DNA of 64,000 nucleotides from an uncultured Candidatus Binatia bacterium (GCA_965243855.1 CBDEWE010000003.1:1474610-1538609); one strand, 5' to 3'. Counted from the first letter of the stretch, positions 27,633-54,544 are shown. Notes: a model not told the origin generated them from the sequence alone. Made by a program: numbers and translations.

Positions 27633-27699
27633 AGTCAGACGCTACCTAAAGTACGGATATCGTCATGAATCCTTTTCGCAGTCAAGCGCCGTGGGTGTT

Positions 27700-27786
27700 T
27701 GTTGAGTCGGTTGAGTCTTGACCCAAAAGACTCAAAAGACTCAAAAGACTCAATAGACTCAATAGACCCAATAGACCCAAAAGACT
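27700..27786. repeat. family-B tandem-9-mer palindromic element, copy 1
   Basis: GTTGAGTCG GTTGAGTCT TGACCCAAAA then GACTCAAAA x3, GACTCAATA x2, GACCCAATA, GACCCAAAA. The left 9-mers are the reverse complement of the right 9-mers. Lies upstream of coxL. Confidence 0.9.
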
Positions 27787-27815
27787 TCCTTTGCCTATGG
27801 GAGCGAGTGAGTGGG

Positions 27816-28118
27816 ATGCCGAGTTTCGATATTGGGGTTGGACATGGCTCCGCCTATCACCTGGTTGAAGAAAATATCGCGCGCTATGTGGTCAAGGCGT
27901 ATCGCGGCCGGCCCGAGCGCGCGCTGACGGCTGGCAGCATTGTTCGGCATATTCTACAGGAGCTGGGCGTCTCCGGGTTCTCCTTACAACCGGAGCATAT
28001 TGTGAAGTGGGTCTTGGTGTTTGAAGAACGGACGGGCCGAAAGATTCTTGAAGCAGAGCCGGAAACGTTTCCGGCACGTTATAGGTGCGTATACTACAAA
28101 GATATTCGGATTCTCTGA
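27816..28118 (+). CDS. hypothetical small protein
   Basis: 100-aa ORF directly downstream of a family-B repeat copy. No recognisable domain. The longer 27699 ORF reads through the repeat and is probably an artefact. Confidence 0.3.
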   Translation: MPSFDIGVGHGSAYHLVEENIARYVVKAYRGRPERALTAGSIVRHILQELGVSGFSLQPEHIVKWVLVFEERTGRKILEAEPETFPARYRCVYYKDIRIL

Positions 28119-28213
28119 GTAGGTGGCCGCAGAGCGGGGCTGCCTGCTCCAGCCAAAACGGCCAAGGGCGTATGCCCTTGGCCGTTCTATTTTGAGAGCA
28201 AGACGCTAGAATT

Positions 28214-29392
28214 TTATGCGTTCAGCTTGGCTTCGTCCGCTGCGGTCGGACCTTCGACTCTGTACAGTTTTTGTCCGTTGTCCCACAGGATTTTACGCCG
28301 AACCTCTTCGTCACAATCGTCCAGGCCGTTCTTGATCCGATCATGAACCTCGTCGCCGTAAAGCGAAGTCGGGTGGGGAAAGTCGGTTTCAAACATGATC
28401 CGGTCAGCTCCGACCTTGTCGATCAGACGCCGTGGGGCAATCTGCTCGAACCAGTAGCAGGCGTAGATATTACGCGCAAAATACTCGGACGGCAGCATAT
28501 CGAGATCGGGCCGTTCTTCCGGGACTCGATTACCGAGGAATTGGTAGTCCAGAGCTTCGAGGGCAAACGGAATCCAACCGATACCGCTCTCAACCGAGAC
28601 AAATTTAATGCTGGGATAACGGGCCAGGACACCCGAAATGATGAGGTCACTCAACTGAATGCCGTTGCGCATGAAGATATCAACCGAAAGCTCGGCAAAC
28701 GCCGCCATTTTACCGTAGGTTTTCACCTTGTCGCGCCGCAGGCCGCCATCCATATTGCCAGAGCCAATATGAAAGCTGATTGGCTGGTCAAGCTCGCAGG
28801 CAACTTCCCACAACGGATTCCAGTGCGGGTCGCCCAGCAGGGGTTGGCCGAGCGATTGCGGGTCTCCGGTGAAGAGAATGCCCTTATGGCCCATGGCGTG
28901 ACAGCGTCGGATTTCTTCAACCGAGGCGTCGACATCCCAGAACGGCGTTGAGGTGATCGGGAGCAGGCGGCGGGAATCGGCTGACGCCCACTCGGTCTGC
29001 CAATCGTTATACACTTTGACACAGGTGAGCTTGAGCCCGGAGTCTTCGAGGCGGAGAAACTCCTGGCTGCCAAATCCCCCGACGTTGGGATACATGACCA
29101 TCGCCCAGATGCCCATTTCATCCATGTATTTGAGACGCTCCGTGGCGTCGAATGCCCCTGGGTGCATCTCGTCATACGACTTGGGCCAGTTGGTCATATC
29201 GCCCACGCCCGCGGTGGCGGTCAGCCCTGGATTGGCTATGCGCCGGTCGCCGAGGAACCACCACTGGCGTCCCTTGGCGTCGAAGTCAACGCGGGGGACC
29301 GAGTCTTTCAACTTATCAGGGACCCGACTGGTCCATAGGTCCGGCGTTTCCGTTACGTGTGTGTCAACGTCAATGATTGTATAGCCGCTCAT
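28214..29392 (-). CDS. amidohydrolase-2 family metal-dependent hydrolase (ACMSD-like TIM barrel)
   Basis: Begins MSGYTIIDVDTHVTE (an H-x-H metal-binding start) and has a later GIWAMVMYPN pattern. A GGAGG ribosome-binding site precedes the Met at 29392. Confidence 0.7.
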   Translation of the reverse strand: MSGYTIIDVDTHVTETPDLWTSRVPDKLKDSVPRVDFDAKGRQWWFLGDRRIANPGLTATAGVGDMTNWPKSYDEMHPGAFDATERLKYMDEMGIWAMVMYPNVGGFGSQEFLRLEDSGLKLTCVKVYNDWQTEWASADSRRLLPITSTPFWDVDASVEEIRRCHAMGHKGILFTGDPQSLGQPLLGDPHWNPLWEVACELDQPISFHIGSGNMDGGLRRDKVKTYGKMAAFAELSVDIFMRNGIQLSDLIISGVLARYPSIKFVSVESGIGWIPFALEALDYQFLGNRVPEERPDLDMLPSEYFARNIYACYWFEQIAPRRLIDKVGADRIMFETDFPHPTSLYGDEVHDRIKNGLDDCDEEVRRKILWDNGQKLYRVEGPTAADEAKLNA

Positions 29393-29565
29393 ATATGTGC
29401 CTCCTTCAGCCGCCATTCTGGAGTCCTAGCGTATCTGAGGACTCGACAATTGCCAAGTCGGACGGAGGAGGGCAGGGGCTTCATGACGGGGGTGGTCGTT
29501 GTCATCGACCTGTCCGTATATGATACACTGGAATCAGCCGAACCAACGAGGCATGGGAGGACTGT

Positions 29566-29817
29566 ATGGCAACAAAAAAAGATATCGCCCTGGTAAGAGA
29601 ATTACGGCCCAGTAACCCAACGGAAGAACAGGTACCAGCCAAGGAGCCCTCCCTCATAGAAGAATTTCGGCTCACGAGCCTGGCAGCGGAATTTGAGCAG
29701 CATAGCCAAGCAGAAATCGAACGTTTGGGTGGTGAGAATCCTGATTTTGACGAGCAACTCTACCACGAAGCCGTTTCCCTCGTCCTGCGGAAACTCAGCC
29801 GATATCGAAAAGAGTAA
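29566..29817 (+). CDS. hypothetical small acidic protein
   Basis: 83 aa with no recognisable domain. Its 3' end runs into a family-A palindromic repeat. Confidence 0.3.
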   Translation: MATKKDIALVRELRPSNPTEEQVPAKEPSLIEEFRLTSLAAEFEQHSQAEIERLGGENPDFDEQLYHEAVSLVLRKLSRYRKE

Positions 29818-29858
29818 ACGTAGCCTCCAATTGAGATGCTGGATACCTTCACTCTTTT
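29809..29858. repeat. family-A palindromic element, copy 6 (degenerate, inverted)
   Basis: AGAGTAAACGTAGCCTCCAATTGAGATGCTGGATACCTTCACTCTTTT. Immediately upstream of the SMC-like ATPase gene. Confidence 0.75.
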
Positions 29859-29879
29859 AATCAAGTCAAGGAAGCTTTC

Positions 29880-32144
29880 ATGATCATCACGAGTGTCCAC
29901 GCGAAAAATGTGCTGCGTTATGCGGAATTGAAGCTGACGAATCTCCCCCGGCAGGGAGTGATTGGCATAAGCGGTGCCAATGAATCCGGCAAAACGACCA
30001 TTGCCGAGATTCTGTGTCTGGCATTGTTTGGCCGGACGTTCTCTCACGCTGAGAGCGATTTCCAAAAAAACATCAAGTGGGGCGAGTTTGGCGCTTCAAT
30101 CTCTGTTGGCTTTCTTGCCAAGGATAAACACAGCTATTTGGTGACTCGCTCTTTTGATGCGGACGGGAATCACTTGGCTCAGCTTCGCAGGGACAGGGAA
30201 GACGAGCCCTTTGTCCGTGGAGCCGCTGCGGTGAACGAGAATGTGGCCCAACTATGTGGTTTTACCTATCAACGTTTTATTGATTCCTTTTATTTAGCCC
30301 AGCGCAATATCGCATCTCCGTCCATTCTCCTCCAGACCGCCAAGGCGTTGGCAGGGGTTGAAACCTTTGAGCAGGTAGCGACTGAATGTGAGTCCGATAT
30401 CCACGCCCTCCAGGAAGAACTCGCCCCTCTGCACAGCGGTCTTGCCGAGGCTCGCCGGCAGCGCAGTGAACTCAATATCCAGGCTGATGCGTTGCCCAAT
30501 TTGAAGACCGAACAGAACGCACAAACCACCGCCATGGCTGAGCGAAAAAAAGAGAATACGGTCCGTCAGCTGACGCTCGACCGTCTGCGCGCTGCAACCA
30601 CAGAGATGGCTGAGCAAGTGAAAAAGACGATGCAGGCCACTCTCGATGTCAGCTTGAAGCAGTGGCTCCATTATGCGGAGAATATCGATACGGTCACACA
30701 AAACGTCGACGCGGCGAGCGAAGGGGCAGAATCCGGTTCGGGTCAACGGCTGACTGGGGCGCTCCAGTCTTGGCGTGACGATTTGCGCAAGCGCCTTGAA
30801 GCTTTTACCCCGGTGCGTAACGCGACAGCCACGTATCGCCAACGTTTGGCCTGGCTCATTGGCCAGGGAGAGCGGCCGGCCGAGGTCGACACTCATGCGC
30901 GCTCTTTACCCGACCAGAGAGCATTTCTCCTCAGTCAGGGGGAAGAAATACGCGGGAAGCGGACCGGCCCTATTATCGGCTTTTTTGGCGCGTTTCTGTT
31001 GATGATTATGAGTTGGAGCGCACTCTGGTTTCTGAACTATATGCCAGACCACGCCATTGGACAGTGGCTCAGCAACGGCTTGCAACTACAGGTGACGCAT
31101 ACCACTGTGCTTCTCCTGGTCGCCGCAGTCTCCAGCGGACTGAGCCTGGTGTTGCTTGTTATGGTTTTCCTTCTGACGGAGCGGATTCTGACTGCGCGGC
31201 AGAGGGCCGCCCGCCTCCAGTCCGACCAAGAAGAAACCAAAGTCCAACTCCAAAGTTTAGATGACCTTCCTCAGCAGTCCCTGGCAACGGAGGTGGCGAA
31301 GCTTGATGCCTATGCTGATCCGCAATTGAAAGAGGCTCTGACCCAGTTTGTCAGTGGTCCCGGTGTGTCGCTGCTTGATGCAGAATCGCTCGCAGCGTTT
31401 CTTGCTCCGCTGGAGGCCGCGAGCCTCACCTGCCAGGAGGACGCTGACGCTATCACCAGACGGATAACTGGAGAAATCCGGTCTGTTGAGACGAATTTGG
31501 TTGCCATACAACAAGACCTGGAGCGTCTGGATCAGGCCATTACGGAAGAAGATCGTCGCCTCAATAAAGCGGCGCAACTGGACCAGGAGATCGCTGCGTT
31601 CGAAAAGGATATTGATGGTAAAACTCACAGTATTGAAGTACGGCGAATCGCACAAAATCTCCTCACTGGCTCACACCGTCGTTTACTGAGCCGGTTTAAC
31701 CTGGAGATGCGGCACGTTGTGAGTAAAATCATGCCGCAACTCACTGAGGGGCGCTACGAGACCATGCAGATCGATAACGACCTCAACGTCCGGGTATGGT
31801 CTAGTGAAAAGGGTCATTTTGTTGATCTGAACGAAATTTCGGGAGGCACCTATAATCAGGTCATGCTGGCGATCCGTCTCGCCTTGTCGCAAGCCCTGAT
31901 TACCTCGTCGCTGTGTGGCGTTGAGTGCCTAATTCTCGATGAGCCGTTCGCCTTTTTTGACGCCCAGCGTACCCAAAAGACTCTGGAAATTTTGCCTCAG
32001 GTTAGTCCTGAAATCGAACAGATGTGGATTATTGCTCAGCGGTTTGATGACAACAGCCCTTTCGCCATGCACCTGAGTTGCTCACGGGACTCGGAGGTTT
32101 TGATCGCCCCAGTGGGTGAATATGAGGCGTTGGAGGAGGGATAA
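29880..32144 (+). CDS. membrane-anchored SMC/Rad50/SbcC-family ATPase (YhaN/SbcE-like)
   Basis: N-terminal Walker A GISGANESGKTT. C-terminal ABC signature ISGGTYNQ and Walker B CLILDEP. Long coiled-coil arms are interrupted by two hydrophobic TM helices (aa ~365-385 and ~405-430). Confidence 0.7.
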   Translation: MIITSVHAKNVLRYAELKLTNLPRQGVIGISGANESGKTTIAEILCLALFGRTFSHAESDFQKNIKWGEFGASISVGFLAKDKHSYLVTRSFDADGNHLAQLRRDREDEPFVRGAAAVNENVAQLCGFTYQRFIDSFYLAQRNIASPSILLQTAKALAGVETFEQVATECESDIHALQEELAPLHSGLAEARRQRSELNIQADALPNLKTEQNAQTTAMAERKKENTVRQLTLDRLRAATTEMAEQVKKTMQATLDVSLKQWLHYAENIDTVTQNVDAASEGAESGSGQRLTGALQSWRDDLRKRLEAFTPVRNATATYRQRLAWLIGQGERPAEVDTHARSLPDQRAFLLSQGEEIRGKRTGPIIGFFGAFLLMIMSWSALWFLNYMPDHAIGQWLSNGLQLQVTHTTVLLLVAAVSSGLSLVLLVMVFLLTERILTARQRAARLQSDQEETKVQLQSLDDLPQQSLATEVAKLDAYADPQLKEALTQFVSGPGVSLLDAESLAAFLAPLEAASLTCQEDADAITRRITGEIRSVETNLVAIQQDLERLDQAITEEDRRLNKAAQLDQEIAAFEKDIDGKTHSIEVRRIAQNLLTGSHRRLLSRFNLEMRHVVSKIMPQLTEGRYETMQIDNDLNVRVWSSEKGHFVDLNEISGGTYNQVMLAIRLALSQALITSSLCGVECLILDEPFAFFDAQRTQKTLEILPQVSPEIEQMWIIAQRFDDNSPFAMHLSCSRDSEVLIAPVGEYEALEEG

Positions 32145-32150
32145 GGGTCC

Positions 32151-32225
32151 TTTGAGTCGATTGAGTCCATTGAGTCCATGAGGCTCAACAGACCCAACAG
32201 ACCCAACAAACTCAATAGGCCCATA
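32151..32225. repeat. family-B element, copy 2
   Basis: TTGAGTCGA TTGAGTCCA TTGAGTCCA TGAGGCTCAACA GACCCAACA GACCCAACA AACTCAATA GGCCCAT. Lies between the SMC-like ATPase and acyl-CoA dehydrogenase genes. Confidence 0.9.
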
Positions 32226-32239
32226 ACCAAGGAGATCGT

Positions 32240-33391
32240 ATGGATTTCGCTCTCACTAAAGAACAAGAAGCGTTTCGCGCGGAAATCCGGGAGTTCTTGT
32301 CGAGCGAGGTGCCGGCTGGGGCACGAGTTGAAGACGGCTGGATTAGCGGCTATTCGCGCGAATTTTCTCAGAAACTTGGCCAGCAAGGCTGGATCGGATT
32401 GACTTGGCCCAAGCAATACGGCGGGCAAGAAAAGTCGTATCTTGACCGCTTGATCCTGACCGAAGAACTGCTGCGTGCCGGAGCCCCGGTTGCGGCGCAC
32501 TGGCTGGGGGATCGTCAGGTTGGTCCGGCGCTTCTGGCGTATGGAAGTGAAGAGCAAAAACAAGAAATCCTCCCGCAAGTCTGTAAAGGTGAGATCGTCT
32601 TTTGTCTGGGTATGAGTGAGCCCGGGTCCGGCTCAGACCTGGCTTCGCTCCAGACCAGGGCGGAAGAGGAGGGAGATTACTATACCCTGAACGGCCAAAA
32701 AATCTGGACCAGCTTTGCCCATGTTGCAGATTATGCCTATCTGGTCGCTCGTACGGACCCGGATGCTCCGAAGCACAGGGGGATCAGTGAGTTCCTGGTT
32801 GCGATGGATACTCCGGGTGTCGATGTGCGACCCCTTATCGATGCCACGGGGGAGCATCACTTTAACGAGGTCTTTTTTGATAATGCTGAGGTACCGAAAA
32901 ACCGGCTGATTGGTGAGAAAAATCGAGGCTGGTACCAGATTGCCTCCCAGCTTGACTATGAGCGCAGCGGTATTGAGCGGCTGCTGAGTAATTATCCCCT
33001 GTTTCAGGATGCCGTTCGGTACGCAAAGGAACAGGGGCTGACGAAAGATCCGCTTGTCCGGGACACACTGTCTCAGCTTCAGATCGAGCTCGATTTGGGC
33101 CGTTCCATGGTTTACAAGGTGGCTTGGTATCTGACTCAGAAGATGGTGCCGAACTACGAGGCCGCCATGGCAAAGTGTTTTTGTACCGAAGTGGAACAGC
33201 GTATTGCCAAAGCGGTGAGTGAACTGCTGGGTGATTATGCGGTCCTCCTGCCAGGCTCGCCTCATGCTCGCTTAGCCGGCCGTGCAGCTCGAGAATATCT
33301 GTACGCTCCGGCCTATACGATCCAGGGCGGAACGAGCAATATTCTGCGCAATATCGTCGCGATCCGCGGCCTTGGTTTGCAGCCAGGGTAG
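32240..33391 (+). CDS. acyl-CoA dehydrogenase
   Basis: 383 aa ACAD (GMSEPGSGSDLASL; IWTSFAHVADY; catalytic C-terminal YTIQGGTSNILRN). Confidence 0.85.
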   Translation: MDFALTKEQEAFRAEIREFLSSEVPAGARVEDGWISGYSREFSQKLGQQGWIGLTWPKQYGGQEKSYLDRLILTEELLRAGAPVAAHWLGDRQVGPALLAYGSEEQKQEILPQVCKGEIVFCLGMSEPGSGSDLASLQTRAEEEGDYYTLNGQKIWTSFAHVADYAYLVARTDPDAPKHRGISEFLVAMDTPGVDVRPLIDATGEHHFNEVFFDNAEVPKNRLIGEKNRGWYQIASQLDYERSGIERLLSNYPLFQDAVRYAKEQGLTKDPLVRDTLSQLQIELDLGRSMVYKVAWYLTQKMVPNYEAAMAKCFCTEVEQRIAKAVSELLGDYAVLLPGSPHARLAGRAAREYLYAPAYTIQGGTSNILRNIVAIRGLGLQPG

Positions 33392-33392
33392 A

Positions 33393-33443
33393 ATGAGTAA
33401 ACGTATCCAGCATCTGCATGTTTATTGGAGGACACGTTTACTT
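33393..33443. repeat. family-A palindromic element, copy 7
   Basis: GAGTAAACGTATCCAGCATCTGCATGTTTATTGGAGGACACGTTTACT. Lies between the acyl-CoA dehydrogenase and SDR genes. Confidence 0.9.
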
Positions 33444-33526
33444 ATCGGGACAGCATAAGAGTGAGCGGTTGCTCTTATGCTGCTCGGTCTTTGAGGGGCC
33501 AGTCGGCCCTGACTGAAGGAGGGCCC

Positions 33527-34279: not shown

Positions 34280-34348
34280 GCTGAAAGATTGCTCGTTTGA
34301 TAAATATAAGACTGATAATTTTTCTTTTGTAAAATTTTAGGAGGATGT

Positions 34349-35362: not shown

Positions 35363-35661
35363 CATAATCCAAAAGAGAGATGGGTGTCGTTAGAGAAAAA
35401 TGTTTCGTGTGAAACAGGTAAGGTATTGGATGAGGTAATTCATCTTTTTCAGGATTTTCTCTGACTGTTAAGACTGAAAAAATATCAAACAGTTAGATGG
35501 TAAGGTGGGGAATATTCTCAGGTAGAACATCACTTTTTGATATATGGCAATGTCGAGTCTGGAACGATTTTCTAGTGTCCTCTGTTCTCTCCATTGGAGG
35601 GGTACGGGAAGACTGAAGTCCAGCTATACCCAACCAGTGTTGATAAGCTAAAACTATCAAG

Positions 35662-36468: not shown

Positions 36469-36488
36469 TATCTAAAGGTAACACGATC

Positions 36489-39400
36489 ATGTTAGCACGT
36501 TTGGCACAGAAAATTTTTGGGAGCAAAAACGAACGCGAGCTCAAGCGCATGCGCCCGTTAGTGGCAGAGATCGGGCAGCTTGAACCTGAACTGCAACCGC
36601 TCAGCATGGATGAGCTGCGAGCGAAAACGGATATATTCCGCAGCCGAATCCAAGATGCCACTGCAGCGACACGTGTACAGTTGGATGAGATTGCACAGCA
36701 GGCGGCCGAGATTGCTCCAGAAGGTGTCCCTGACGCAGATGAGCTGGAGAAGTTGGACTACTTCCAAGAGGAACGAACCAGCCTGGAAAAAGAACTTCGC
36801 GCGGCGGAAGCTGATGTGCTTGACGATATTCTGCCCGAAGCCTATGCGACCGTCCGCGAAGTCTCGCGTCGGGTCACCAGCATGCGCCATTTTGATAGCC
36901 AACTCCTTGGCGGCATTGTCCTCCATCAGGGCCGTATTGCCGAGATGAAAACGGGCGAGGGAAAGACGCTGGTTGCAACCCTGCCGCTCTATCTCAACGC
37001 CCTACTCGGTCGTGGCTCACATCTGGTAACGGTCAACGACTATCTGGCCCGCCGTGATGTGCAGTGGATGGGGCCTATTTATCATGCCCTTGGGCTATCC
37101 GTTGCTTCTATCGTACACGACGCGAGTTTTATCTTTGACCCGACTCATGTGGTCAAAGATTATCGGTATATGAATCTTCGTCCGGTCAGCCGCAAAGAGG
37201 CATATGCGGCCGATATCACCTATGGAACGAATAACGAATACGGCTTCGACTACTTACGCGATAATATGAAGTTCAACCTTGAAGATTATGTTCAGCGTGA
37301 ATTGCATTTTGCCATTGTTGATGAAGTGGATAACATCCTGATTGACGAAGCTCGGACGCCACTGATTATTTCCGGTCCGGCAGAAGAATCCACACAGAAG
37401 TATTACTCGCTCAATCGGGTCATTCCGCGTCTCCAGCGTGAGGTCGATTACGCTATTGACGAAAAACTCAGAACCGCAACGCTCACCGAAGAGGGGGTCG
37501 CGAAAGTTGAGCGTATTCTCGGCGTGCGCAACCTGTACGACCCGTCTGAGATCGGGACCTTGCACCATGTCAACCAGGCGCTGAAAGCGCATGCCATTTT
37601 TAAGCGCGACGTTGATTATGTGATTAAGGATGGCGAAGTCGTCATCGTTGATGAATTTACCGGTCGTCTCATGCCCGGCCGACGCTGGTCGGATGGGCTG
37701 CATCAAGCCGTCGAAGCCAAGGAGGGCGTCCGGATTCGTGAGGAAAATCAAACTCTTGCGAGCATAACGATTCAGAATTACTTCCGCATGTACGATAAAT
37801 TGGGAGGCATGACTGGGACGGCGGATACGGAGGCGGTTGAATTCAAGAAGATCTACGATCTTGATGTGGTGGTGATTCCACCCAATCGTCCCATGGTCCG
37901 GATGGATCATCCTGACATGGTGTACAAGACCGAGCGCGAGAAATTCGAGGCAGTGATTGCCGATATCCTCGACTGCCACGAGCGGGGACAACCCGTATTG
38001 GTCGGTACAATTTCAGTCGAGAAGTCCGAATATCTCAGCAGACTCCTCAAGAGAAAAAAGGTCAAGCACAATGTCCTCAATGCGGTTAACCACGAAGCTG
38101 AGGCGAACATTATTGCCCAGGCGGGTCGTTTTGGTGCGGTGACTATTGCCACGAATATGGCTGGTCGGGGGACTGATATTTTGCTTGGTGGAAACCCGGA
38201 ATTCCTGGCCCGCTCCGATATTGAAAAAAAATGGGTCAATAAGGCCAGTGCCGCCCGGACCAAGAAAGGCGCAAAGACAGCGGCCACAACAGAAAAGAGT
38301 TACGAAGACCAACTAGAAGAAATCCGCGCAGAGTATAATGCTGCGACCGCCCAGGCCCAGGAAAAATATGAGCCTCAATGGACTCCTTTCGAGGAGGCCC
38401 GTAATGCGGCATTGAAACGGATGACGGAGACCTATCGCCCCTATCTCCACGCTACGCTGCAGAAAGCTCGGGTCGACTATGGGGAGGCTGCGCGTGTGTT
38501 CGTTGGGCCGGTTGAGTCCGTTGAGTCATCGAGTCGGTTGAGTCTTGACCCCAAAGACCCTAAAGACTCAACAGACCCAAAAGACCTCCCTATGGAGACG
38601 TATAGCCAAGCACGGGAAGCGTATGAGTCGGCATTGTCAGAATATGACAAGGTGGTCGGTCCAGCGCTGAATGAAGAGCAACAACAAGACTATGAGACTG
38701 CGCGTACCGATTTTATTGCGGTATTGACTGAAGATGGGATGGAGGAGGGAGAGGCGTCTGAACGCCTTAACCTCAACCGAAACCGCTACGAAGATTGGCT
38801 AGAAGATTACTGTCAGTCCATTATTCAGATGGCTGGCTTAGCTCTGAGTGAAAACGACCGGGTACAAGAGGTATATGAAGCCGCCCGCCAGGCGTATGAA
38901 GAAAACCAACAAGCCTACCAGGATGCTGATCAACGCTATGAGGAGGCGCGTAAGCCGTATGAAGCCGCTGTCGCTGAGGCAGAGCGTGTGTACGAGCAAC
39001 AGCGCAAGGATCATGTCCAGGTCATAGAAGAGGTCAGGGAACAGCTTGAGAAAGCACCTGACGCGTATAGCCAGGATTTCAACGAAATTCTTGAGAAGTA
39101 CGAGAAAACGTGCGGCGAGGAGCGAGAAAAGGTTGTTGCTGCCGGTGGTGTACACATTTTGGGCACTGAGCGTCACGAGTCTCGAAGAATTGATAACCAA
39201 CTCCGCGGGCGCGCGGGACGCCAGGGAGACCCTGGTTCATCCAGATTTTTCCTCTCCCTGGAAGATGACCTCCTGCGTATTTTTGGCGCAGAGCGCGTAC
39301 AGAAAATAATGGACCGGCTGGGCATGGAAGAGGGGGAACCCATAGAAGCCGGACTCGTCACCCGGGCTATCGAAAATGCCCAGGGGCGAGTCGAGGGCCA

Positions 39401-40226
39401 TAACTTCGATATCCGAAAACATCTGCTGGAATATGATGATGTGATTAACAAACAGCGTGAAGTCATCTATGAGCAGCGCCGGGGATTCCTGGCCGGTGAA
39501 AATTTGAAAGGTCAGGTACTGGAAATTGTTGAAGAGATGGCTGAAGAAAGTGTGCTGAACTATGCGGATAAAGGAATCGACCCGGCGGAGTGGGACTGGA
39601 AAGGGCTTGATGACACGGTGTTTCGCCAATTCAATATGCGTCTTGGCTTGAGTGAGGAACAGCAAGAAGAGCTGATAACGGAAGATCTCCAGGACCTTGT
39701 GCGAGACCGGGCGCTCCAACACTATGAAGAACGAGAACAGGCTTTTACACCACCTGTTATGCGGTATCTCGAAAAGGTGATCATGCTACAAACCATGGAC
39801 AGTCTGTGGAAAGACCACCTGTTTGCCATGGACCACCTTAAAGAGGGGATTGGTCTGCGCGGCTACGGTCAGAAAAACCCCCTGCAAGAGTACAAGAAAG
39901 AGGCATTCAGTCTGTTCGACGACCTCTCCCGTCGGATGCAGGAAGATATTGTTGAAAAGCTCTATAGCGTCCAGGTGGCCCGCCAGGAAGATGTCCAGCG
40001 GATGGAGGAAGGGCAGGCTGCACAACGGCCTATGCAGATGATGCACGGCGGACAGGCAACGCTCCAACAACCACAGTCGGCAACACGACCTATGCAGGGG
40101 GGACCGAATGGACAGCCACAGACGGAACGACCTGTCCAAGCCGTACGGGATACGCCCAAGGTTGGTCGGAACGCACCCTGTCCGTGTGGTAGCGGCAAGA
40201 AATACAAGAAGTGTCACGGCGCATGA
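36489..40226 (+). CDS. secA: preprotein translocase ATPase SecA, with a ~300-aa insertion in NBD2 and a C-terminal zinc finger
   Basis: [21 protein letters not shown] start. DEAD-motor motifs ([13 protein letters not shown]; DEVD; [10 protein letters not shown]; [27 protein letters not shown]). C-terminal [14 protein letters not shown]. 1245 aa versus about 900 aa for typical SecA. Confidence 0.95.
38511..38586. repeat. family-B element, copy 3, inside the secA coding sequence and in frame
   Basis: GTTGAGTCC GTTGAGTCA TCGAGTCG GTTGAGTCT TGACCCCAAAGACCCTAAAGACTCAACAGACCCAAAAGAC, translated as [25 protein letters not shown] within SecA. Confidence 0.9.
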
Positions 40227-40244
40227 TAGAATCAGAGCCAAGCT

Positions 40245-41453: not shown

Positions 41454-42635
41454 TTAGCGGCCCTTGGGTAGTTGGAGTACGCGTTCGGCGATGATGTTGC
41501 GCAGGATTTCGGACGTGCCGCCCTCAATAGTATTGGCCCGGGCGCGGAGAAAACCGTACTGCCAATAATGTTCCGCTTCGGCTTCACCATAGAGTTGTCC
41601 GGCTGTCCCCTGCATCTCGACAGCGAGATCTTGCATGCGCTGGTTGGTTTCGGCCCAATGTAGCTTGGCAATCGAGCCTTCCGGTCCTGCCGGGTTGCCG
41701 CGCAGCAACCGCGTCAAGGCGCGATAATTATTCAGCTTCAAGACTTCGCAATCGATATATGCCTGGGCCATTTTCTGGCGGAGCCGACGATCAGTCCGGT
41801 CTGAGGCCGAACTGGAGTCGCACAGCCAGGCACGCAGGTCATCGTACGTCCGTTTTTGGGCGAAGGTAAAATAAAAGCCCAGCCCCTGCCGCTCAAACAT
41901 GAGCGAGGTGATAATGACCTTCCAGCCCTGGTTCACCTCCCCCAGAAGATTAGCCTTTGGGACCTGGACGTTCTCGAAAAAGACCTCGTTAAACTCGCTC
42001 TCTCCTGTCATAGTACGTAGCGGCTTAATCGTGATACCCGGACTCTTCATATTAACCAGGAGGGCCGATAGGCCATTATGCTTTGGCGCGTCCGGGTCGG
42101 TCCGCACCAGGAGCAAGCACCAGTTGGCATAGCGGGCTAAACTCGTCCACACCTTCTGGCCATTGACCAAAAAATAATCGCCCTGGTCAACCGCGCGGGT
42201 CTGGAGTGAACCCAGGTCCGAGCCCGAGTTCGGCTCGGAATAGCCCTGGCTCCAAATATCCGCACCACTCAGAATAGCGGCGAGATGTTTTTTTTTCTGC
42301 TCCTCTGTTCCATAGACGATAATCGTCGGCCCGACGATCTCCAAACCCAGGACATTGAGCAAACCGGGCGCTTGATGGTTAGCCATTTCTTCATCAAAGA
42401 TCATCCGTTCGATCAGAGAAGCACCGCGACCGCCGTACTCTTTAGGCCAGGAAATCCCGGCCCAGCCACCTTCGTACACCGTGCGTTGCCAGTCTTTCAG
42501 AAAGGCGAGGTCCGCGGCTGAGGCCTGCGGCTGAAGGTGACGTAGCGGGCCATTGTTTTGTGGAACGTTGACCGCGAGCCAGGTGCGGAGTTCCTGCCGA
42601 AAGGCCTTCTGCGCTGAGGTAAAATGAAAATCCAT
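41454..42635 (-). CDS. acyl-CoA dehydrogenase
   Basis: ACAD motifs (YSEPNSGSDLGSL; C-terminal IEGGTSEILRN). Start chosen at MDFHFTSAQKAF to avoid overlap with gatB. Confidence 0.8.
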   Translation of the reverse strand: MDFHFTSAQKAFRQELRTWLAVNVPQNNGPLRHLQPQASAADLAFLKDWQRTVYEGGWAGISWPKEYGGRGASLIERMIFDEEMANHQAPGLLNVLGLEIVGPTIIVYGTEEQKKKHLAAILSGADIWSQGYSEPNSGSDLGSLQTRAVDQGDYFLVNGQKVWTSLARYANWCLLLVRTDPDAPKHNGLSALLVNMKSPGITIKPLRTMTGESEFNEVFFENVQVPKANLLGEVNQGWKVIITSLMFERQGLGFYFTFAQKRTYDDLRAWLCDSSSASDRTDRRLRQKMAQAYIDCEVLKLNNYRALTRLLRGNPAGPEGSIAKLHWAETNQRMQDLAVEMQGTAGQLYGEAEAEHYWQYGFLRARANTIEGGTSEILRNIIAERVLQLPKGR

Positions 42636-42675
42636 GCTGGGCTCCTGTACCGGAACAGTCGAATCGCTGGTAACG

Positions 42676-44121
42676 CTATTGGGAGAGCTTTTGCCGTAAG
42701 AGGGTATTGACCATCTGGGGATTGGCTTTGCCCTGGGTGGCACGCATAACCTGCCCGACAAAGAAGCCGATTAGCTTTTCTTTGCCGCTACGATAGGCCT
42801 CCACTTTGTCCGGGTTGGCCGTCAAGACCTTGGCAATAGCAGCCTGCAGAGTGTCGGTGTCGCTGACCTGGCGCAGTCCCTTGGCCTCAATGATCTCTTC
42901 TGGGGGCTGAGCGGTTTGGCGCATTTCCTCGTAGACGGTCTTGGCGATGGTCGTGCTGATGGTGTTGTCTTGTATCAATCCGATTAATTCGCCCAAGTGC
43001 TCGGGCGGGCAGGGCCAGGTCTCGATTTTCAGCGCCGCGTCCAGTTTTTCTTCCTTGATGAAGCGCAATACGCTGTCCATGACCCAGTTGCTGACGACTT
43101 TGGGTGCTGCGGGGCAGGCGCGCACGCTGGCCTCGAAATAATCCGCCACATCTTTGCGGGCCGTCAGCACCTCGGCATCATAGGCCGGCAGGTCGTAGTC
43201 GTGCATGAAGCGGGCTCTCCGTGTGGCTGGTAGCTCGGGCAGGACGGCTCGAATGTTTTCGACCCAAGTCTGGTCCACGACCAGTGGTAACAAATCCGGA
43301 TCGGGAAAATAGCGGTAATCGTGGGCGAACTCCTTGCTGCGCATGGGTCGGGTCACCTCTCGATCCGCATCCCATAGACGGGTTTCCTGGACGACCCGCC
43401 CGCCGGCTTCGACAACCTCGGTCTGGCGCTGAATTTCATGCTCGATCGCCTTTTCGACGGCGCGAAACGAATTGAGGTTCTTAGTCTCAGTTCTAGTGCC
43501 AAACTCGGTCTGCCCCTGCGGACGTATGGAGACGTTGGCGTCGCAGCGGAGACTGCCTTCTTCCATATTGCCATCACAGACCTCAATATATTGAAGCAGC
43601 GCCCGCAGGCTGCGCAGATAATTACCCGCTTCCGCGGCAGACCGGATATCCGGTTCGCTGACAATCTCTAATAGGGGAACACCGGTACGATTCAGGTCAA
43701 CAAGACTCGCGCCCGCTTCAGCATCATGGATGCTCTTGCCGGCGTCTTCCTCCATATGAATTCGGGTTAAGCGCACCTTCTTTGCTTGGCCTTGGTCGGC
43801 GACCTCAACATAACCGTGTTCGGCAATGGGCAGCTCGTACATGCTGATCTGGTAGCCCTTGGGCAGGTCGGGATAAAAATAGTTTTTCCGCGCCCAACGG
43901 CTGGTGGATGCAACCGCGCAGTGCGTGGCCAGTGCGGCGCGGAGGGCGAAATCAACGACCTTCTTATTGAGCACGGGCAAAACCCCAGGCAAACCCAGGC
44001 AGACCGGGCAGGTATGCTGGTTGGGCATTGCACCGAAGCGGGTGGAACAGCCACAAAAAATTTTTGACTCGGTCAGTAATTGCGCATGCACTTCCAGGCC
44101 AATGACGGATTCGTAGGACAT
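42676..44121 (-). CDS. gatB: Asp-tRNA(Asn)/Glu-tRNA(Gln) amidotransferase subunit B
   Basis: Begins [27 protein letters not shown]. 481 aa with a C-terminal GatB/YqeY domain. Confidence 0.95.
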
Positions 44122-44148
44122 ACTGTTACTCTGTCTATATTGCTGCTG

Positions 44149-45609
44149 TTAGAGAGGCGGCTTACGGGTCCGCCAGTCATGATCCTGTTCGTACGCGTAA
44201 CCAGTCTGGAGCAGGGCTTCTTCATCAAAGGGGCGCCCTATCAACTGGAGTCCAATCGGCAACCCGTGATGATCAAATCCGCACGGGACAGACAACCCTG
44301 GTAAGCCGGCCAAATTGACCGCTATCGTAAAAATATCCGAAAGATACATCGTAAGTGGGTCCGCCAGCTTCTCTCCCAGCCGAAACGCGGTTGTCGGAGC
44401 GACCGGAGTCGTAATGATATCACAGGCTTCAAAGGCATCCAGGAAATCCTGCCGAATCAGAGTTCGTACCTTCTGCGCCTTTACATAATAGGCGTCATAA
44501 TACCCAGCGGATAAAACATAGGTGCCGAGTGCAATGCGCCGTTTAACCTCGCTGCCAAATCCCTGGGCACGGGTCGTCTGATACAGCTCTCCCAGGTCTT
44601 CAACCTCAGCTGCCCGGTAGCCATAGCGGACACCATCGTAGCGAGCCAAATTTGAGCTCGCCTCAGCCATGGCAATAATATAATAGCTTGCCACTGCATA
44701 TTCGGTATGAGGGAGAGAGATCGGGACAATCTCTGCTCCCAATGTGCCCAGGTGGGCGATCGCGTCCCTGACTGCTGTCTCTACCTCCGGCTGCATTCCC
44801 TCAATAAAGTATTCTTGCGGTATACCGATACGCAGGCCGCTGACGCCTCGCTCCAGATGGGCAGTGTAGCTCGATGTGGGTCTGTTGACGGAAGTCGAAT
44901 CGCGAGGATCATAGCCGGCAATCACCTCCAGCAGGAGGGCGCAGTCCCGGACATCTTTGGTACACGGACCGACCTGATCTAAGGACGACGCATAGGCCAC
45001 AACCCCAAACCGACTCACCCGCCCGTAAGTTGGTTTCAGGCCCACAATGCCACAGAATGCGGCCGGCAGGCGAATGGAACCGCCCGTATCTGTTCCCAAG
45101 GCCGCATAGGCTTGATCAGCCGCAACGGATGCCGCCGACCCGCCGGATGAGCCGCCCGGTACCCGGTCCGTATCCCACGGATTCCGGCAGGGGTTGAACG
45201 CCGAATTTTCATTGGACGAGCCCATCGCAAATTCGTCACAGTTGACTTTGCCGATAACCACCGCCCCGGCCTCCTTGAGGCGCTGTGTCACGGTTGCGTC
45301 ATACGGCGAAATAAAACGTTCGAGAATTTTTGAGCCCGCGGTTGAACGCACTCCCTGGGCAAGGATAACGTCCTTGAGCGCAATCGGAATCCCGCACAGC
45401 GGAGGTGGGGTCGCCCCGCTTGATAGGGTTCGGTCTGCGGCTTCTGCCTGGACGAGCGCTTCCTCGGCACACACGGTCAGGTATGAATGCAGGTGCCCAT
45501 CTGTGGCTTGAATCCGACTCAGCATCGACTGTGCTAACTCAACCGCACTGACTTCTCGGCTGCGCAGTTTTTCCCGGGCCTGATGAATGGTCAGGGCATG
45601 GTGTGACAT
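44149..45609 (-). CDS. gatA: Asp-tRNA(Asn)/Glu-tRNA(Gln) amidotransferase subunit A (amidase signature family)
   Basis: Amidase signature [13 protein letters not shown]. 486 aa. Sits between gatC and gatB. Confidence 0.95.
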
Positions 45610-45611
45610 GG

Positions 45612-45908
45612 TTACTCAATGATTTTTGGAACGCGAAAGAAATGGGTTTTCCGACTCGGTGCATTCGCCAGCAGGGCGTCGGTTTGGGCGGCACTTAGCG
45701 TATTGGTGACAACATCGTCCCGGAGCGGAGCGGACACCGCTACTGCATGGGCGGTCGGCTCGACACTGTCGGTCTGCAATTCGCCAAGTTTATCGACATA
45801 GGTTAAGATCGTATCAAAGTGTTGAGTCAGCTCCGCCAATTCTTCCTCTGTAAACGACAGGCGGGCCAATACAGCAACCTGTCGAACTTCATCCGGTGTA
45901 ATACGCAT
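45612..45908 (-). CDS. gatC: Asp-tRNA(Asn)/Glu-tRNA(Gln) amidotransferase subunit C
   Basis: 98 aa beginning [27 protein letters not shown], the canonical GatC N-terminus. The longer ORF-track version reads through a family-B repeat. Confidence 0.9.
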
Positions 45909-45963
45909 AATTGCTCTTCTTTCTGCGGGTGTCAGTGTGTCACACCACCCCTTGCAATTCAAC

Positions 45964-46017
45964 AAAGAGTAAACGTGTCCAGCATCTGCCTGTCTATGGG
46001 AGGATACGTTTACTCTT
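45964..46017. repeat. family-A palindromic element, copy 8
   Basis: AAAGAGTAAACGTGTCCAGCATCTGCCTGTCTATGGGAGGATACGTTTACTCTT. Lies between gatC and yraN, 70 bp from a family-B copy. Confidence 0.9.
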
Positions 46018-46085
46018 CGCGGTAGGCCGGTCGTCGGAGGACGCTCTTGATCCACGCAAGCCGTGTCAGCTACCCTGTATGTGTT

Positions 46086-46178
46086 CGTTGAGTCCGTTGA
46101 GTCTTTAGGGTCTTTGGGGTCAAGACTCAACAGACCCAATGACTCAACAGACCCAATGACTCAACAGACCCGAAAGAC
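46086..46178. repeat. family-B element, copy 4
   Basis: GTTGAGTCC GTTGAGTCT TTAGGGTCTTTGGGGTCAAGACTCAACAGACCCAAT GACTCAACAGACCCAAT GACTCAACAGACCCGAAAGAC. Lies between gatC and yraN. Confidence 0.9.
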
Positions 46179-46184
46179 ATCGTT

Positions 46185-54350: not shown

Positions 54351-54380
54351 GTTTTAGCGTTTAGAAGGATAAAAAAGGAG

Positions 54381-54416: not shown

Positions 54417-54430
54417 CCCGATACAGAAAT

Positions 54431-54454: not shown

Positions 54455-54544
54455 ATTATTCCAACATATTTACCTCTTCCTTACCCGGAACAATAGTGCA
54501 AATTTTTAGAGGTGGGGTGGAATTTTTACCTGGAATTAAAGATT

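Follow-up and report, generated by a model that had tools for sequence, protein, structure and literature searches.

Mirrored heptamer arrays dispersed in Candidatus Binatia genomes and in frame within secA: an apparently undescribed repeat

What kind of element is a repeat, made of short tandem units, that fills the gaps between genes and also lies in frame inside secA? The question is raised by a 64,000-nt stretch of DNA from an uncultured Candidatus Binatia bacterium (the window), in which a sequence-only reading had picked out four copies, three of them intergenic and one in the secA coding sequence (Table 1). Motif counts, a composite pattern, Tandem Repeats Finder and direct inspection of the sequences confirmed the four copies at these places, and the secA copy lies in an intact ORF. 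The window contains 13 occurrences of the motif GTTGAGTC, compared with an expectation of 1.9; the four elements account for 11 of them. The two-unit pattern GACYCAANAGACYCAA, with up to two mismatches, gave 24 matches in the window against 0.44 expected, all within the elements, and the composite pattern TTGAGTC-N1-30-GACYCAANAGACYCAA matched all four copies and no shuffled sequence. Tandem Repeats Finder reported period-9 arrays at every site; however, the 9-bp periodicity that had been claimed is not strict, as a unit of 8 nt and another of 10 nt occur in the secA copy and a 17-nt repeat is present in copy 4.

Table 1. Repeat copies and associated genes in the window (L and R, left and right units).
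Feature	Coordinates	Strand	Description
Molybdopterin dehydrogenase ORF	25335-27632	minus	Neighbor of copy 1, divergent
Copy 1	27695-27789		2 L units (TTGAGTC), center TTGACCC, 7 R units (GACYCAA); left end GTGTTTG, right end AAGACTTCC
Small ORF	27816-28118	plus	Neighbor of copy 1, divergent
TAA stop codon, AAA_23/SMC-like ORF	32142-32144		Upstream of copy 2
Copy 2	32145-32226		3-4 L units and 4-5 R units
Acyl-CoA dehydrogenase gene	ATG at 32240		Downstream of copy 2
secA	36489-40226	+	Host gene of copy 3; intact ORF, 1245 aa
Copy 3	38495-38589	+	Inside secA, in frame; left end TGTGTTCG, 5 L units (one of 8 nt), center TTGACCCCAAAGACCCTAAA, R units, AAGACCTCC
Copy 4	46080-46182		Left end TGTGTTCG, L units, right end AAGACATCG
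UPF0102/YraN gene	ATG at 46185		Downstream of copy 4

Copies 1 and 4 are located between divergent genes; the gene divergent from copy 4 is gatC, and on the other side the copy ends 2 nt 5' of the UPF0102/YraN start codon. Copy 2 begins immediately 3' of a stop codon and ends 3 nt 5' of the AAGGAG ribosome-binding site of the acyl-CoA dehydrogenase gene, occupying the whole gap between the two. The center of copy 4, TTTAGGGTCTTTGGGGTCAA, is the inverted form of the idiosyncratic center of copy 3, and its right part is composed of three 17-nt double units (GACTCAACAGACCCAAT), a 9+8 higher-order repeat. Folded as single-stranded DNA, the four copies are just moderately better than shuffled sequences (z from −2.3 to −3.8); therefore, they are imperfect palindromes, as first described.

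A pattern fitting all four copies was found in at least 104 further stretches, where we estimate that about 8 would be expected by chance. Nearly all are from about 16 Candidatus Binatia genomes (MAGs), so the element is not confined to the window but belongs to a dispersed family, with roughly 200-300 copies per genome by extrapolation. A tailed-phage contig carries three copies, between tail genes. Rfam contains no family matching the element, and a literature search for the motif gave no match. Apparently, this is a high-copy repeat of uncultured Binatia that has so far not been described.

The family was characterized from 146 arrays at 59 independent sites. Its layout is a left array of NNTTGRGTC units opposite a right array of GACYCAANN units, in which each unit combines the conserved heptamer TTGRGTC with a free spacer of 1-3 bases. 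The polarity is strictly L..LR..R in 122 of the 146 arrays, while two have R units before L units and ten have units in a single orientation. Among 943 unit intervals, 769 (82%) are 9 nt and 120 (13%) are 8 nt. Each arm is a tandem array of 1-16 heptamer units with free spacers; the mode is four in both arms, and the left and right counts are weakly correlated (r = 0.20). Heptamers standing alone outside the arrays are not enriched.

The copy in secA encodes approximately residues 672-698 of a protein that contains all five SecA Pfam domains: SecA_DEAD, SecA_PP_bind, P-loop_SecA (split), SecA_SW and SEC-C. Alignment and a structure model place it within an insertion of about 340 aa that is entirely helical, is specific to the clade and lies in the second nucleotide-binding domain. 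The location in such a lineage-specific, low-complexity insertion could suggest that SecA has had the segment since ancient times as an ordinary coding repeat and that the intergenic copies are unrelated look-alikes. However, the secA nucleotides have the exact center and ends of intergenic copies 1 and 4. Six related genomes have the segment at the same codon position, and the copy is in place in L018, L050, L096, L099 and L101, where 9-mer arrays are recognizable although their unit structure differs. Close relatives differ there by whole 9-mer units and by inversion of the center (window and L099 versus L018 and L096); the site varies between 80 and 116 nt, by whole codons. In distant Binatia SecA proteins (39-58% identity), the surrounding helical insertion is present, whereas the VES...DPK segment is absent. 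Because the relatives carry 9-mer arrays and not the same peptide in unrelated nucleotides, and the distant proteins lack the segment, the view of it as an insertion held, and an ancient coding repeat is refuted, with practically no chance left to it. In the AlphaFold model, the segment is a low-pLDDT loop between two long helices and is predicted to be disordered. The secA copy would then be a tolerated, lineage-specific loop insertion rather than a working part of SecA.

Where copies lie between genes, they mostly occupy spacers of co-directional pairs (81 copies, with a median of 7 nt past the stop codon and 17 nt ahead of the next start), while 15 are between divergent and five between convergent genes. 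The anticipated in-frame copies in other coding sequences were also found: 39 of the 146 copies, representing 14-18 of the 59 independent sites (about a quarter), are inside ORFs, with hosts including SecA, ClpB, DnaX, CysN-CysC and a histidine kinase. Units within coding sequences are in the VES/DPK frame in 255 of 326 cases, and this frame predominates at 16 of 18 sites, giving almost always (V/I/L)(E/G)S...D(P/S)(K/T). The favored frame is stop-free and hydrophilic; L units are read as V/I/L-E/G-S and R units as D-P/S-K/T. Such copies are located in linkers, loops and C-terminal tails. Eight hosts have a Pfam domain, and in seven of these the copy falls outside the domain envelopes. The sequence-only reading had proposed that the three-codon period lets the element sit in coding DNA. 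The period does help, but it does not guarantee the frame, and since 13% of the unit intervals are 8 nt, the intact frames reflect selection. The element survives in two niches: the short gap between a stop codon and a ribosome-binding site, and coding DNA in the one stop-free hydrophilic frame.

The origin of the copies can be judged from their centers and ends. A 27-nt idiosyncratic center, TTGACCCCAAAGACCCTAAAGACTCAA, recurs at no fewer than four sites that are not orthologous, among them window copies 1, 3 and 4; these sites also have common ends, TGTGTTYG and AAAGACCTCC, which are asymmetric and non-repetitive. A center and asymmetric ends common to unrelated sites indicate that the copies were derived from a common source and did not arise in situ. 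If each array had grown in place like a microsatellite, starting from a GRGTC..GACYC proto-site present by chance and enlarging through slippage and inverted duplication, the family would be convergent simple sequence without mobility. The rapid change in unit number would suit such an origin, as would a minimal 1+1 "proto-element" in L059 where L061 has 2+5 units, and dispersed tandem heptamer arrays without a known mobility mechanism occur in other phyla (PMC4679880, PMC4692102). Besides the shared center and ends, however, the same heptamer and polarity recur at all 59 sites and in the phage, and there is no enrichment of single heptamers that could seed arrays; we regard local growth as very improbable.

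Gain or loss of copies was observed at orthologous sites. The spacer downstream of secA is filled in L018 and L050 and empty in the window and L101; where L067 has an in-coding copy, four other genomes have an empty site, and one further site is empty in L044. The clean filled/empty pair of L027 and L044 shows no target-site duplication. The L067 site has a direct repeat matching at 8 of 9 nt, accompanied by extra changes or rearrangement, and the other pairs are too diverged to judge. The filled/empty pairs thus reveal no consistent target-site duplication, and nothing in them points to a particular transposition chemistry. At most sites, all genomes that cover the site have a copy, so mobility is slow or past, and copies persist for a long time at the same site.

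Once in place, the element continues to change. As predicted for a VNTR, unit numbers differ between genomes at nearly every orthologous site, including those of copy 1 (L002, L033, L045 and L062). The orthologues of copy 2 (L033, L038, L062, L085 and L099) are 48-95 nt long, those of copy 4 are in L014, L065 and L073, and at one orthologous site the length varies between 71 and 205 nt. Orthologous elements are on average 64% identical, compared with 91% for their flanks, chiefly because of changes in unit number; in a few pairs, the element is closer than the flanks (100% versus 87% for L018/L050). Each arm grows and shrinks independently, which is consistent with replication slippage, and the center between the inverted arms is able to flip.

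The heptamer itself is conserved. In orthologues of the same length, differences were found at 27 of 651 core positions and 19 of 145 spacer positions (Fisher p = 2e-4; p = 0.0035 in a stricter set). In this comparison, which covers just 13 orthologous pairs, the rate of change at core positions is 3-5 times lower than in spacers. The fold was no weaker when the unit order in one arm was permuted (mean z +0.57, n = 32). Spacers in register are complementary in 20 of 269 cases, which is rarer than the 31.8 ± 5.1 expected by chance, and the two arms show no co-variation. A slowly evolving core in arms that do not co-vary lends indirect support to the likeness to binding-site arrays that had been noted from the sequence alone. 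The conserved core is probably a recognition site for a protein, and the hairpin itself would not be the selected feature; gene conversion between copies or a function at the host level could also account for the slow evolution of the core.

These data bear on a role in RNA, in which a hairpin between cistrons, comparable to the REP elements of E. coli operons, shields the upstream mRNA from 3' exonucleases or modulates downstream translation. Every copy can fold into a hairpin. Most copies fill co-directional gaps, with the next start codon a median of 17 nt beyond their end, and are therefore transcribed within operons. However, compensatory co-variation between the arms is lacking, and in the co-directional spacers the sense-strand fold is weaker than the antisense one (by a mean of 4.3 kcal/mol; weaker in 54 of 81 copies, many of which are orthologues of one another). 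Spacers between convergent genes are the usual place of stabilizers and terminators, yet the element is depleted there (5 of 70 spacers, compared with 81 of 505 co-directional ones). No T-run, terminator signature or Rfam match was found, and copies in coding sequences and in the phage do not suit such a role. We consider it improbable.

The slow evolution of the core, relative to spacers and nearby flanks, would also be expected if the heptamers were operators for a sequence-specific DNA-binding protein, perhaps nucleoid-associated or of the ribbon-helix-helix type, which coats tandem short repeats and organizes the chromosome or tunes neighboring genes. The copies would then be kept by selection for their benefit to the host and not by selfish spread. 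The absence of co-variation means that sequence matters and pairing does not, the convergent polarity is fixed, the mode of four units per arm is kept across sites, and the sites remain occupied across species diverged by 7-15%. Against this, unit number is highly unstable, single heptamers are not enriched outside arrays, the neighboring genes have no common functional theme, and none of the window copies coincides with a promoter-like site. It is difficult to see how copies in unrelated housekeeping ORFs and a phage tail module could be regulatory, and no candidate protein is known. Arrays maintained for the host are rather unlikely, in our judgment.

Our preferred reading, held with moderate confidence as a whole, is a non-autonomous palindromic element that spreads by copy-and-paste, like RPE (Rickettsia palindromic elements) or REPIN, and forms a dispersed family specific to Candidatus Binatia. 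A DNA-binding enzyme (a transposase, a recombinase or a RAYT-like protein) would recognize the heptamer core and copy the element in trans, and the two arms would act as arrays of recognition sites in inverted orientation, similar to the ends of some transposons, which hold several such sites. A survey of about 0.9 Mb of Binatia DNA (the window and 104 loci), which is roughly 1% of the genomes concerned, revealed no transposase, RAYT or other candidate enzyme. A tblastn search with a RAYT query gave weak matches, inside a TonB-dependent receptor. Where genes have a copy on both sides, they are ordinary housekeeping genes, and an apparent 2.1-kb insertion between two copies proved to be a tandem gene duplication.

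Several known systems share some of these features. An integron attC site is an imperfect palindrome with an inverse core, RYYYAAC, on the 5' side and a core, GTTRRRY, on the 3' side. GTTGAGT fits the latter and ACTCAAC the former, yet their order is reversed in 122 of 146 copies and both are tandemly repeated; the element does not fit the attC layout. MIRU-VNTR loci, the mycobacterial interspersed repetitive units that Supply et al. reportedly described in 1997 and 2000, resemble the Binatia element in being intercistronic in operons, in abutting stop and start codons, in unit lengths that are multiples of three and in a strain-variable unit number; in Binatia, too, tandem unit number differs between related genomes at the same locus. 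However, MIRU are direct repeats of 46-101 bp, not palindromic and not in unrelated ORFs.

Each arm, taken alone, is a dispersed array of short units (6-9 nt) whose number varies between orthologues. Cyanobacterial STRR, reportedly described by Mazel et al. in 1990, are likewise dispersed short-unit tandem arrays. Dispersed tandem TAACTGA heptamers occur in Beggiatoaceae, Cyanobacteria and Bacteroidetes (PMC4679880), and GGGNATC arrays, modal at four and reported to be under-represented in coding DNA, in Xanthomonas and Nostoc (PMC4692102). All form many dispersed arrays of 7-9-nt units with variable copy number and an unknown spreading mechanism, mostly between co-directional ORFs and near start codons. 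However, the units of these arrays are repeated directly, all in one orientation and every 7 nt, whereas the Binatia element is a mirrored pair of arrays (single-orientation in just ten cases), repeats mostly every 9 nt and is often found in ORFs.

Pneumococcal BOX, ERIC and Correia elements are MITEs with modular or coding capacity (PMC10969869, PMC2759123). Like them, the Binatia element is small and non-autonomous; BOX has a variable number of boxB, and some ERIC and BOX copies lie in genes and carry ORFs. MITEs differ in having terminal inverted repeats, target-site duplications and a related autonomous IS, none of which was clearly seen for the Binatia element: the whole element is an inverted repeat, but the ends of its best-defined subfamily are asymmetric, and no related IS or transposase was found in the sampled Binatia DNA. 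The REP/BIME/REPIN-RAYT systems have hundreds of copies with two inverted halves, mainly in co-directional spacers, without target-site duplications, vertically inherited and lasting at orthologous sites (PMC3116915, PMC3337134, PMC2817692); the Binatia element is alike in these respects, with no consistent target-site duplication in its filled/empty pairs. However, a REP is a single imperfect palindrome of 20-40 nt and a REPIN consists of two with a spacer (PMC3116915, PMC3337134, PMC2817692), whereas the Binatia arms are tandem heptamer arrays with no single REP-like stem-loop unit. In addition, REPs are essentially extragenic, while about a quarter of the Binatia sites are in ORFs, and RAYT, a Y1 HUH transposase with a single-copy gene that the repeats flank in these systems, was not found in the sampled DNA.

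The likeness to RPE, already drawn from the sequence alone, was upheld by the in-frame copies. RPE are dispersed palindromic non-coding repeats, many of them in frame in unrelated and often essential genes (Ogata et al. 2000, as summarized in PMC10969869). As in RPE (PMC10969869), in-frame Binatia copies, found in intact ORFs, add a peptide compatible with the host fold, and others are intergenic. RPE are 100-150 bp of unique sequence in Alphaproteobacteria, without tandem units or unit-number variation (PMC10969869), whereas the Binatia element consists solely of 8/9-nt units, is hypervariable in length, gives the same type of peptide in either orientation and belongs to an unrelated phylum. 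With Candidatus Binatia as the host and nothing but 9-mer units in the element, common descent is very unlikely. On this description, we treat the element as an analogue of RPE rather than a member of the RPE-1 to RPE-10 series.

All four repeats that the sequence-only reading had placed in the window were found again by direct reading of the sequence (positions in the table). The window holds 13 occurrences of GTTGAGTC (1.9 expected) and 24 of the double unit GACYCAANAGACYCAA with up to two mismatches (0.44 expected), the latter always inside the four elements. The composite pattern TTGAGTC-N1-30-GACYCAANAGACYCAA matched the four sites and had no match in shuffled sequences. On the left of each copy is an array of NNTTGRGTC units (L) and on the right an array of GACYCAANN units (R), the reverse complement of L; a short centre separates the two. 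The 9-bp periodicity claimed for the element holds as the period of the arrays at every site (Tandem Repeats Finder), but not as a strict unit length, because the secA copy contains one 8-nt and one 10-nt unit. Copy 4 contains 17-nt (9+8) double units. Its description as an imperfect palindrome agrees with folding of the single-stranded DNA, which was moderately better than that of shuffles (z −2.3 to −3.8). As proposed, copy 3 is read through in frame in an intact ORF, and copies 1, 2, and 4 lie between genes.

A scan with the composite pattern, covering one genome for each prokaryotic species, matched at least 104 further stretches. Nearly all of them come from about 16 Candidatus Binatia MAGs, which include many complete 4.7–6.0 Mb chromosomes; about 8 chance matches were expected in this collection by our estimate. 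The element is therefore not confined to the window. Several loci are orthologous to the window at 86–95% nucleotide identity, which places the window in Binatia; the nearest sampled relative among the matches listed is OZ242288.1 (about 92–95%). In the window and the 104 tiles of up to 8 kb, 146 arrays were identified with a simple array finder. Extrapolation from the density of unseeded arrays and that of the window (4 per 64 kb) gives roughly 200–300 copies per genome. The window had no match to Rfam families at the gathering threshold, a word-indexed, database-wide protein search returned no match for VES...DPK peptides, and no mention of the motif or of a Binatia repeat family was found in the literature searched.

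A few matches carry other labels. OZ219926.1 (L019, L060, L082, and L083), labelled "Thermodesulfobacteriota bacterium", is probably a misclassified member of Binatia, because its loci at orthologous element sites match those of Binatia at >90% identity. The weak or partial arrays in L015, L087, L088, and L094, from MAGs labelled Blastocatellia, NC10, and Balneolaceae, appear to be chance occurrences or unrelated simple repeats. The copy in L011, from an "Enterobacteriaceae" bin (55% GC), looks genuine, and this contig may be mis-binned. Three full copies lie between siphovirus-type tail genes of the IMG/VR contig IMGVR_UViG_3300010391_000153 (15.9 kb, 63% GC), which encodes a tail tube protein, a tape-measure-like protein, tail protein L, and NlpC/P60. 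All three begin with ...GTCTCTTGAGTC, and their density is about three times that of the chromosomes. The contig may represent a Binatia phage or prophage that acquired the element, or a possible vehicle for it.

The strict order L..LR..R was observed in 122 of the 146 arrays, and R-then-L in only two. Among 943 unit intervals, 769 are 9 nt and 120 are 8 nt long. Both arms most often contain four units (range 0–16), and the unit numbers of the two arms are weakly correlated (r = 0.20). In a 9-mer unit such as TTGAGTCNN, T-T-G-(A/G)-G-T-C is conserved; the fourth position is A or G about equally often, and the two spacer bases vary almost freely. Across the family, only a decaying partial unit is found outside the outermost unit. 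One subfamily, which includes window copies 1, 3, and 4, is distinguished by an idiosyncratic centre, TTGACCCCAAAGACCCTAAAGACTCAA, and by asymmetric defined ends (left, TGTGTTYG; right, AAAGACCTCC).

This centre occurs together with the subfamily ends at four or more unrelated sites: upstream of the small ORF at 27816, in secA, upstream of yraN, and in the group of locus L004. A purely local genesis of the arrays is a rival reading, but independent local growth would not give a common centre and common ends at unrelated sites. Sequence comparison thus argues firmly for dispersal by copying. Filled and empty sites were also found. The 20-nt spacer downstream of secA is empty in the window and in L101, and holds the 9-mer element in L018 and L050. 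An in-CDS copy in L067 is missing from four other genomes. One site is occupied in L027, L031, L059, and L061 and empty in L044. Where L061 has 2+5 units, the element of L059 is minimal (1+1 units). No target-site duplication was seen in the clean filled/empty pair L027/L044, the L067 site shows a direct repeat matching at 8 of 9 nt together with other changes, and the pairs compared had no consistent signature.

In L073 and L096, the spacer downstream of secA carries, instead of the 9-mer element, a copy of a second, unrelated palindromic family with a REP-like look (AAAGAGKAAACGTGYCC, about 20 nt, GGACACGTTTMCTCTTT). This family uses the same type of short intergenic site, and one of its copies lies about 60 nt from 9-mer copy 4. 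The window also contains a cluster of AT-rich palindromes based on ATTGACTATAGTCAAT (29-nt arms, 90% complementary, 67 nt apart), adjoined by a perfect terminator-like hairpin (AAAAAAGGAGCCCTTT/AAGGGGCTCCTTTTTT). The cluster is unrelated to the 9-mer family.

The genes found between two copies encode DnaB, a MetE-like protein, a dehydrogenase, and a PhoX-like protein. In L012/L104, two copies bracket an apparent 2.1-kb "insertion", which was rejected as a mobile gene because it is a duplicated PhoX-like gene. Two genomes carry the PhoX-like gene as a tandem pair with an element copy upstream of each paralogue; therefore, elements can also multiply passively by segmental duplication. A tblastn search of about 0.9 Mb of sampled DNA with an approximate E. 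coli YafM (RAYT) query gave only hits with E > 0.8, and two-piece hits were dismissed as RAYT because they fall within a TonB-dependent receptor. No mobilising enzyme was found in this sample, which is about 1% of the genomes concerned.

Once in place, the copies persist and change. The arrays were grouped into 59 orthologous sites, most of which are occupied in every genome that covers them; therefore, the copies are old. Orthologous elements are on average 64% identical, versus 91% for the 200-nt flanks. The gap is mostly due to gain or loss of whole units, which supports the earlier suggestion that unit number varies between genomes, and one site spans 71 to 205 nt. At the secA site, GTTGAGTC and GACTCAAC flank a 20-nt centre whose orientation is shared by the window and L099 and is inverted in L018 and L096. 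The difference is a flip-flop such as recombination or template switching between the inverted arms would produce. A few orthologous pairs have the reverse of the usual identities, with 98–100% in the element and only 83–87% in the 200-nt flanks. These pairs point to a recent event, either gene conversion or insertion of one master copy, or to exchange between lineages.

A hairpin as the selected feature was rejected. Permuting the order of R units did not weaken the fold (mean z +0.57, n = 32, p = 0.44), and in-register spacers are complementary in 20 of 269 cases, fewer than the 31.8 ± 5.1 expected by chance. The dimorphic positions of paired units are non-complementary in 89 cases and complementary in 56, counts that depend on the assumed pairing register. 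Among same-length orthologues, core positions differ at 27/651 versus 19/145 for spacers (p = 2e-4), and in a stricter set at 6/541 versus 7/119 (p = 0.0035); the six invariant core positions diverge 3–5 times more slowly than the spacers (13 orthologous pairs). Given this slow divergence and the lack of co-evolution between the arms, the core sequence appears to be constrained in these 13 pairs and the hairpin register does not. The slow core divergence could instead result from gene conversion among copies.

Two other roles for the motif were discarded. For GANTC restriction or methylation (GAGTC/GACTC), the pentamers are mildly under-represented outside the arrays (0.79–0.83 of expectation) and heptamer singletons are not enriched; a canonical G-quadruplex motif is present in only 30 of the 146 arrays. 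On the sense strand, 72% of L units read TTGAGTC and 60% of R units read GACCCAA (per-site p = 0.011 versus gene direction). This bias follows local GC skew about as well as gene direction (p = 0.001–0.013 for skew sign, fading under stricter skew thresholds), and either transcription or replication may be its cause. The DNA hairpin energy did not differ significantly between strands.

ORFs were called by a simple codon-usage caller trained on the same DNA, 90% of which is coding. The arrays lie between co-directional genes in 81 cases, divergent genes in 15, and convergent genes in 5, and inside ORFs in 39 (background spacers: 505, 78, and 70, respectively). In co-directional spacers, the element begins a median of 7 nt past the stop codon and ends a median of 17 nt ahead of the next start; it fills the gap and leaves room for the ribosome-binding site. 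This arrangement is seen in textbook form at window copy 2. An intercistronic hairpin acting at the RNA level is a rival explanation, but it is weakened by arms that do not co-vary, by a weaker sense-strand hairpin in co-directional spacers, and by the depletion of copies between convergent genes. A promoter or terminator role was rejected: consensus scans of the four window copies found no promoter-like site and one weak terminator-like hit, at the right end of the secA copy, and total hits were not above shuffles.

The expectation that other coding sequences hold in-frame copies was confirmed, with 14–18 of the 59 sites inside ORFs. The copy lies outside Pfam domain envelopes in seven of the eight hosts listed in the table; a BatA-like host had an N-terminal domain match only, and a large two-copy host protein had no Pfam match. 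Within coding sequences, 255 of 326 units read GTT-GRG-TCN (V/I/L/F-E/G-S) and GAC-YCA-ANN (D-P/S-K/T/N/I), a frame that predominates at 16 of 18 sites. The free spacer bases then occupy a synonymous third position and the initial position of the V/I/L/F codon. The frame that would give TGA is never used. Because the element is palindromic, either orientation yields the same peptide type. Orthologous in-CDS copies differ in length by multiples of three, whereas only 51% of intergenic differences are of this kind; since 13% of the intervals are 8 nt, frame preservation reflects selection and is not automatic.

Some predicted starts also lie within copies. In two genomes (L054 and L013), the N-terminus of a PhoX/DUF839-like, apparently secreted protein, MLKSLLSLLSLLSLAPNDARTQ..., is read from the element in its other open frame, TTG AGT CTN (L-S-L), and appears to replace the ordinary signal peptide of its orthologues. 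The candidate signal peptide in L054 is MLKSLLSLLSLLSLAPNDA. This N-terminus may be an element-derived signal peptide or a wrong start call. A CXXCH-motif (cytochrome-like) ORF in L012 starts inside a copy with a signal-peptide-like N-terminus, MKRLLVSLLSLWGPLGLLGLWGL..., and the overlap of predicted start and element recurs at orthologous loci (L054, L032, L043, L079, and L104).

The secA ORF contains all five SecA Pfam domains. In six related genomes, the copy occupies one position and is in frame in each, with a differing unit structure; the peptide is encoded there by 9-mer arrays and not by unrelated DNA. An E/A/Q/Y-rich helical insertion of ~340 residues splits P-loop_SecA (NBD2) in the SecA of this clade. 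Distant Binatia SecA proteins (39–58% identical over the region) share the insertion and have a short variable loop at the VES...DPK position. An AlphaFold2 model of residues 538–904 (mean pLDDT 78) shows the insertion as long antiparallel helices, and the element residues (136–161 of the fragment) form its only low-confidence internal loop, between helices 68–135 and 162–186. On this basis, the secA copy is a lineage-specific insertion that lies in a predicted surface loop of an already expendable subdomain.

Positions of the elements, host proteins and neighbouring features (L handles, loci matched by the composite pattern; L105 and L106, phage contig)
Feature	Location	Remark or basis
Window copies 1–4	27695-27789, 32145-32226, 38495-38589, 46080-46182	copy 3 in secA
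secA ORF	window 36489-40226	intact
SecA helical insertion	window 38100-39200, residues about 600-890	Pfam split, alignment, AlphaFold2 model
Terminator-like hit	window 38584-38599, minus strand	weak
Second palindromic family	window 5449-5502, 6366-6420, 13208-13259, 33393-33445, 45965-46017; also L073, L096	
AT-rich palindrome cluster	window 54428-54559	
Terminator-like hairpin	window 54371-54402	
Phage-contig copies	L105 1014-1090; L106 1335-1403; L106 2391-2450	intergenic
Pairs more alike in element than flanks	L018 2135-2203 vs L050 3274-3342; L091 4103-4170 vs L098 1670-1753	
PhoX/DUF839-like with element N-terminus	L054 3685-5259 (-); L013 3-854 (-)	
PhoX/DUF839-like orthologues compared	L043 4024-5652 (-); L032 4428-6038 (-); L012 5740-7305 (-)	
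PhoX-like duplication	L012 5740-7305 and 7554-8000; L104 5080-7144	
CXXCH-motif ORF	L012 4010-5728 (-)	
ClpB	between first lid domain and second AAA domain	Pfam scan
DnaX	after domain III	Pfam scan
CysN-CysC fusion	interdomain linker	Pfam scan
Aminotransferase / Mur-ligase fusion	linker	Pfam scan
TPR protein	after TPR region	Pfam scan
EamA transporter	C-terminal tail	Pfam scan
HlyD-type protein	C-terminal tail	Pfam scan
Histidine kinase	within HATPase_c	Pfam scan

Taken together, the comparisons show that the element is dispersed by copying and that a copy then resides at its site for a long time. There, the arms slip independently and the centre inverts; selection restricts the copies to intercistronic gaps and, within proteins, to loops, linkers, and tails read in a single frame. 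The copying agent would be a putative trans-acting DNA-binding enzyme that recognises the core. We propose it because of the conserved core, free spacers, fixed convergent polarity, independent unit numbers, and arms without co-variation. Such a pattern is typical of arrays of protein recognition sites, such as the multi-site ends of some transposons, and not of a hairpin selected for its structure. A binding array that benefits the host is a rival reading. In a more novel reading, which we consider unlikely, the arrays would be more than passengers and form a system maintained by selection, in which a putative Binatia protein binds the GRGTC-type core and the arrays are a REPIN-like resident of new architecture and a coding-compatible cassette for protein innovation. 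If it were true, one frame would supply essential proteins with flexible hydrophilic linkers, and the L-S-L frame a signal peptide.

To our knowledge, in-frame "selfish DNA" within essential genes has so far been regarded as near-unique to Rickettsia. The Binatia element adds an independent case with a different structure, from an uncultured phylum with large genomes and a free-living or sponge-associated lifestyle; therefore, the phenomenon may be more general. The rules of tolerance are explicit: one stop-free hydrophilic frame, alike in both orientations, with free bases at synonymous or conservative positions, and residence in ORFs only in linkers, loops, and tails. The hypervariable loci, about 200–300 per genome, could be used for strain typing of Binatia in metagenomes, and they provide a natural data set for slippage and palindrome flip-flop. 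Assemblers and gene callers should treat the arrays with caution because they lengthen ORFs at starts and ends. If the core is a protein recognition site, its protein would belong to a new mobilisation system or be a new chromosome-binding factor.

Rickettsia palindromic elements (RPEs) are the closest known system in behaviour (PMC10969869), because in-frame insertion into essential genes is frequent in both. REPINs are the closest in population biology, being vertically persistent, intercistronic, and without target-site duplications (PMC3116915, PMC3337134); however, the Binatia element has no REP-type unit, is not extragenic, and had no RAYT in the about 0.9 Mb sampled. The dispersed heptamer arrays of Beggiatoaceae, cyanobacteria, and Xanthomonas have a similar substructure (PMC4679880, PMC4692102), but they are direct, whereas the Binatia arrays are mirrored. 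MITE hallmarks were not seen in the Binatia element. Integron attC sites were rejected because, despite a resemblance in motif, the polarity is opposite. As it differs in defining features from these systems, we classify the Binatia element as a mirrored tandem-9-mer palindromic element with a coding-compatible frame.
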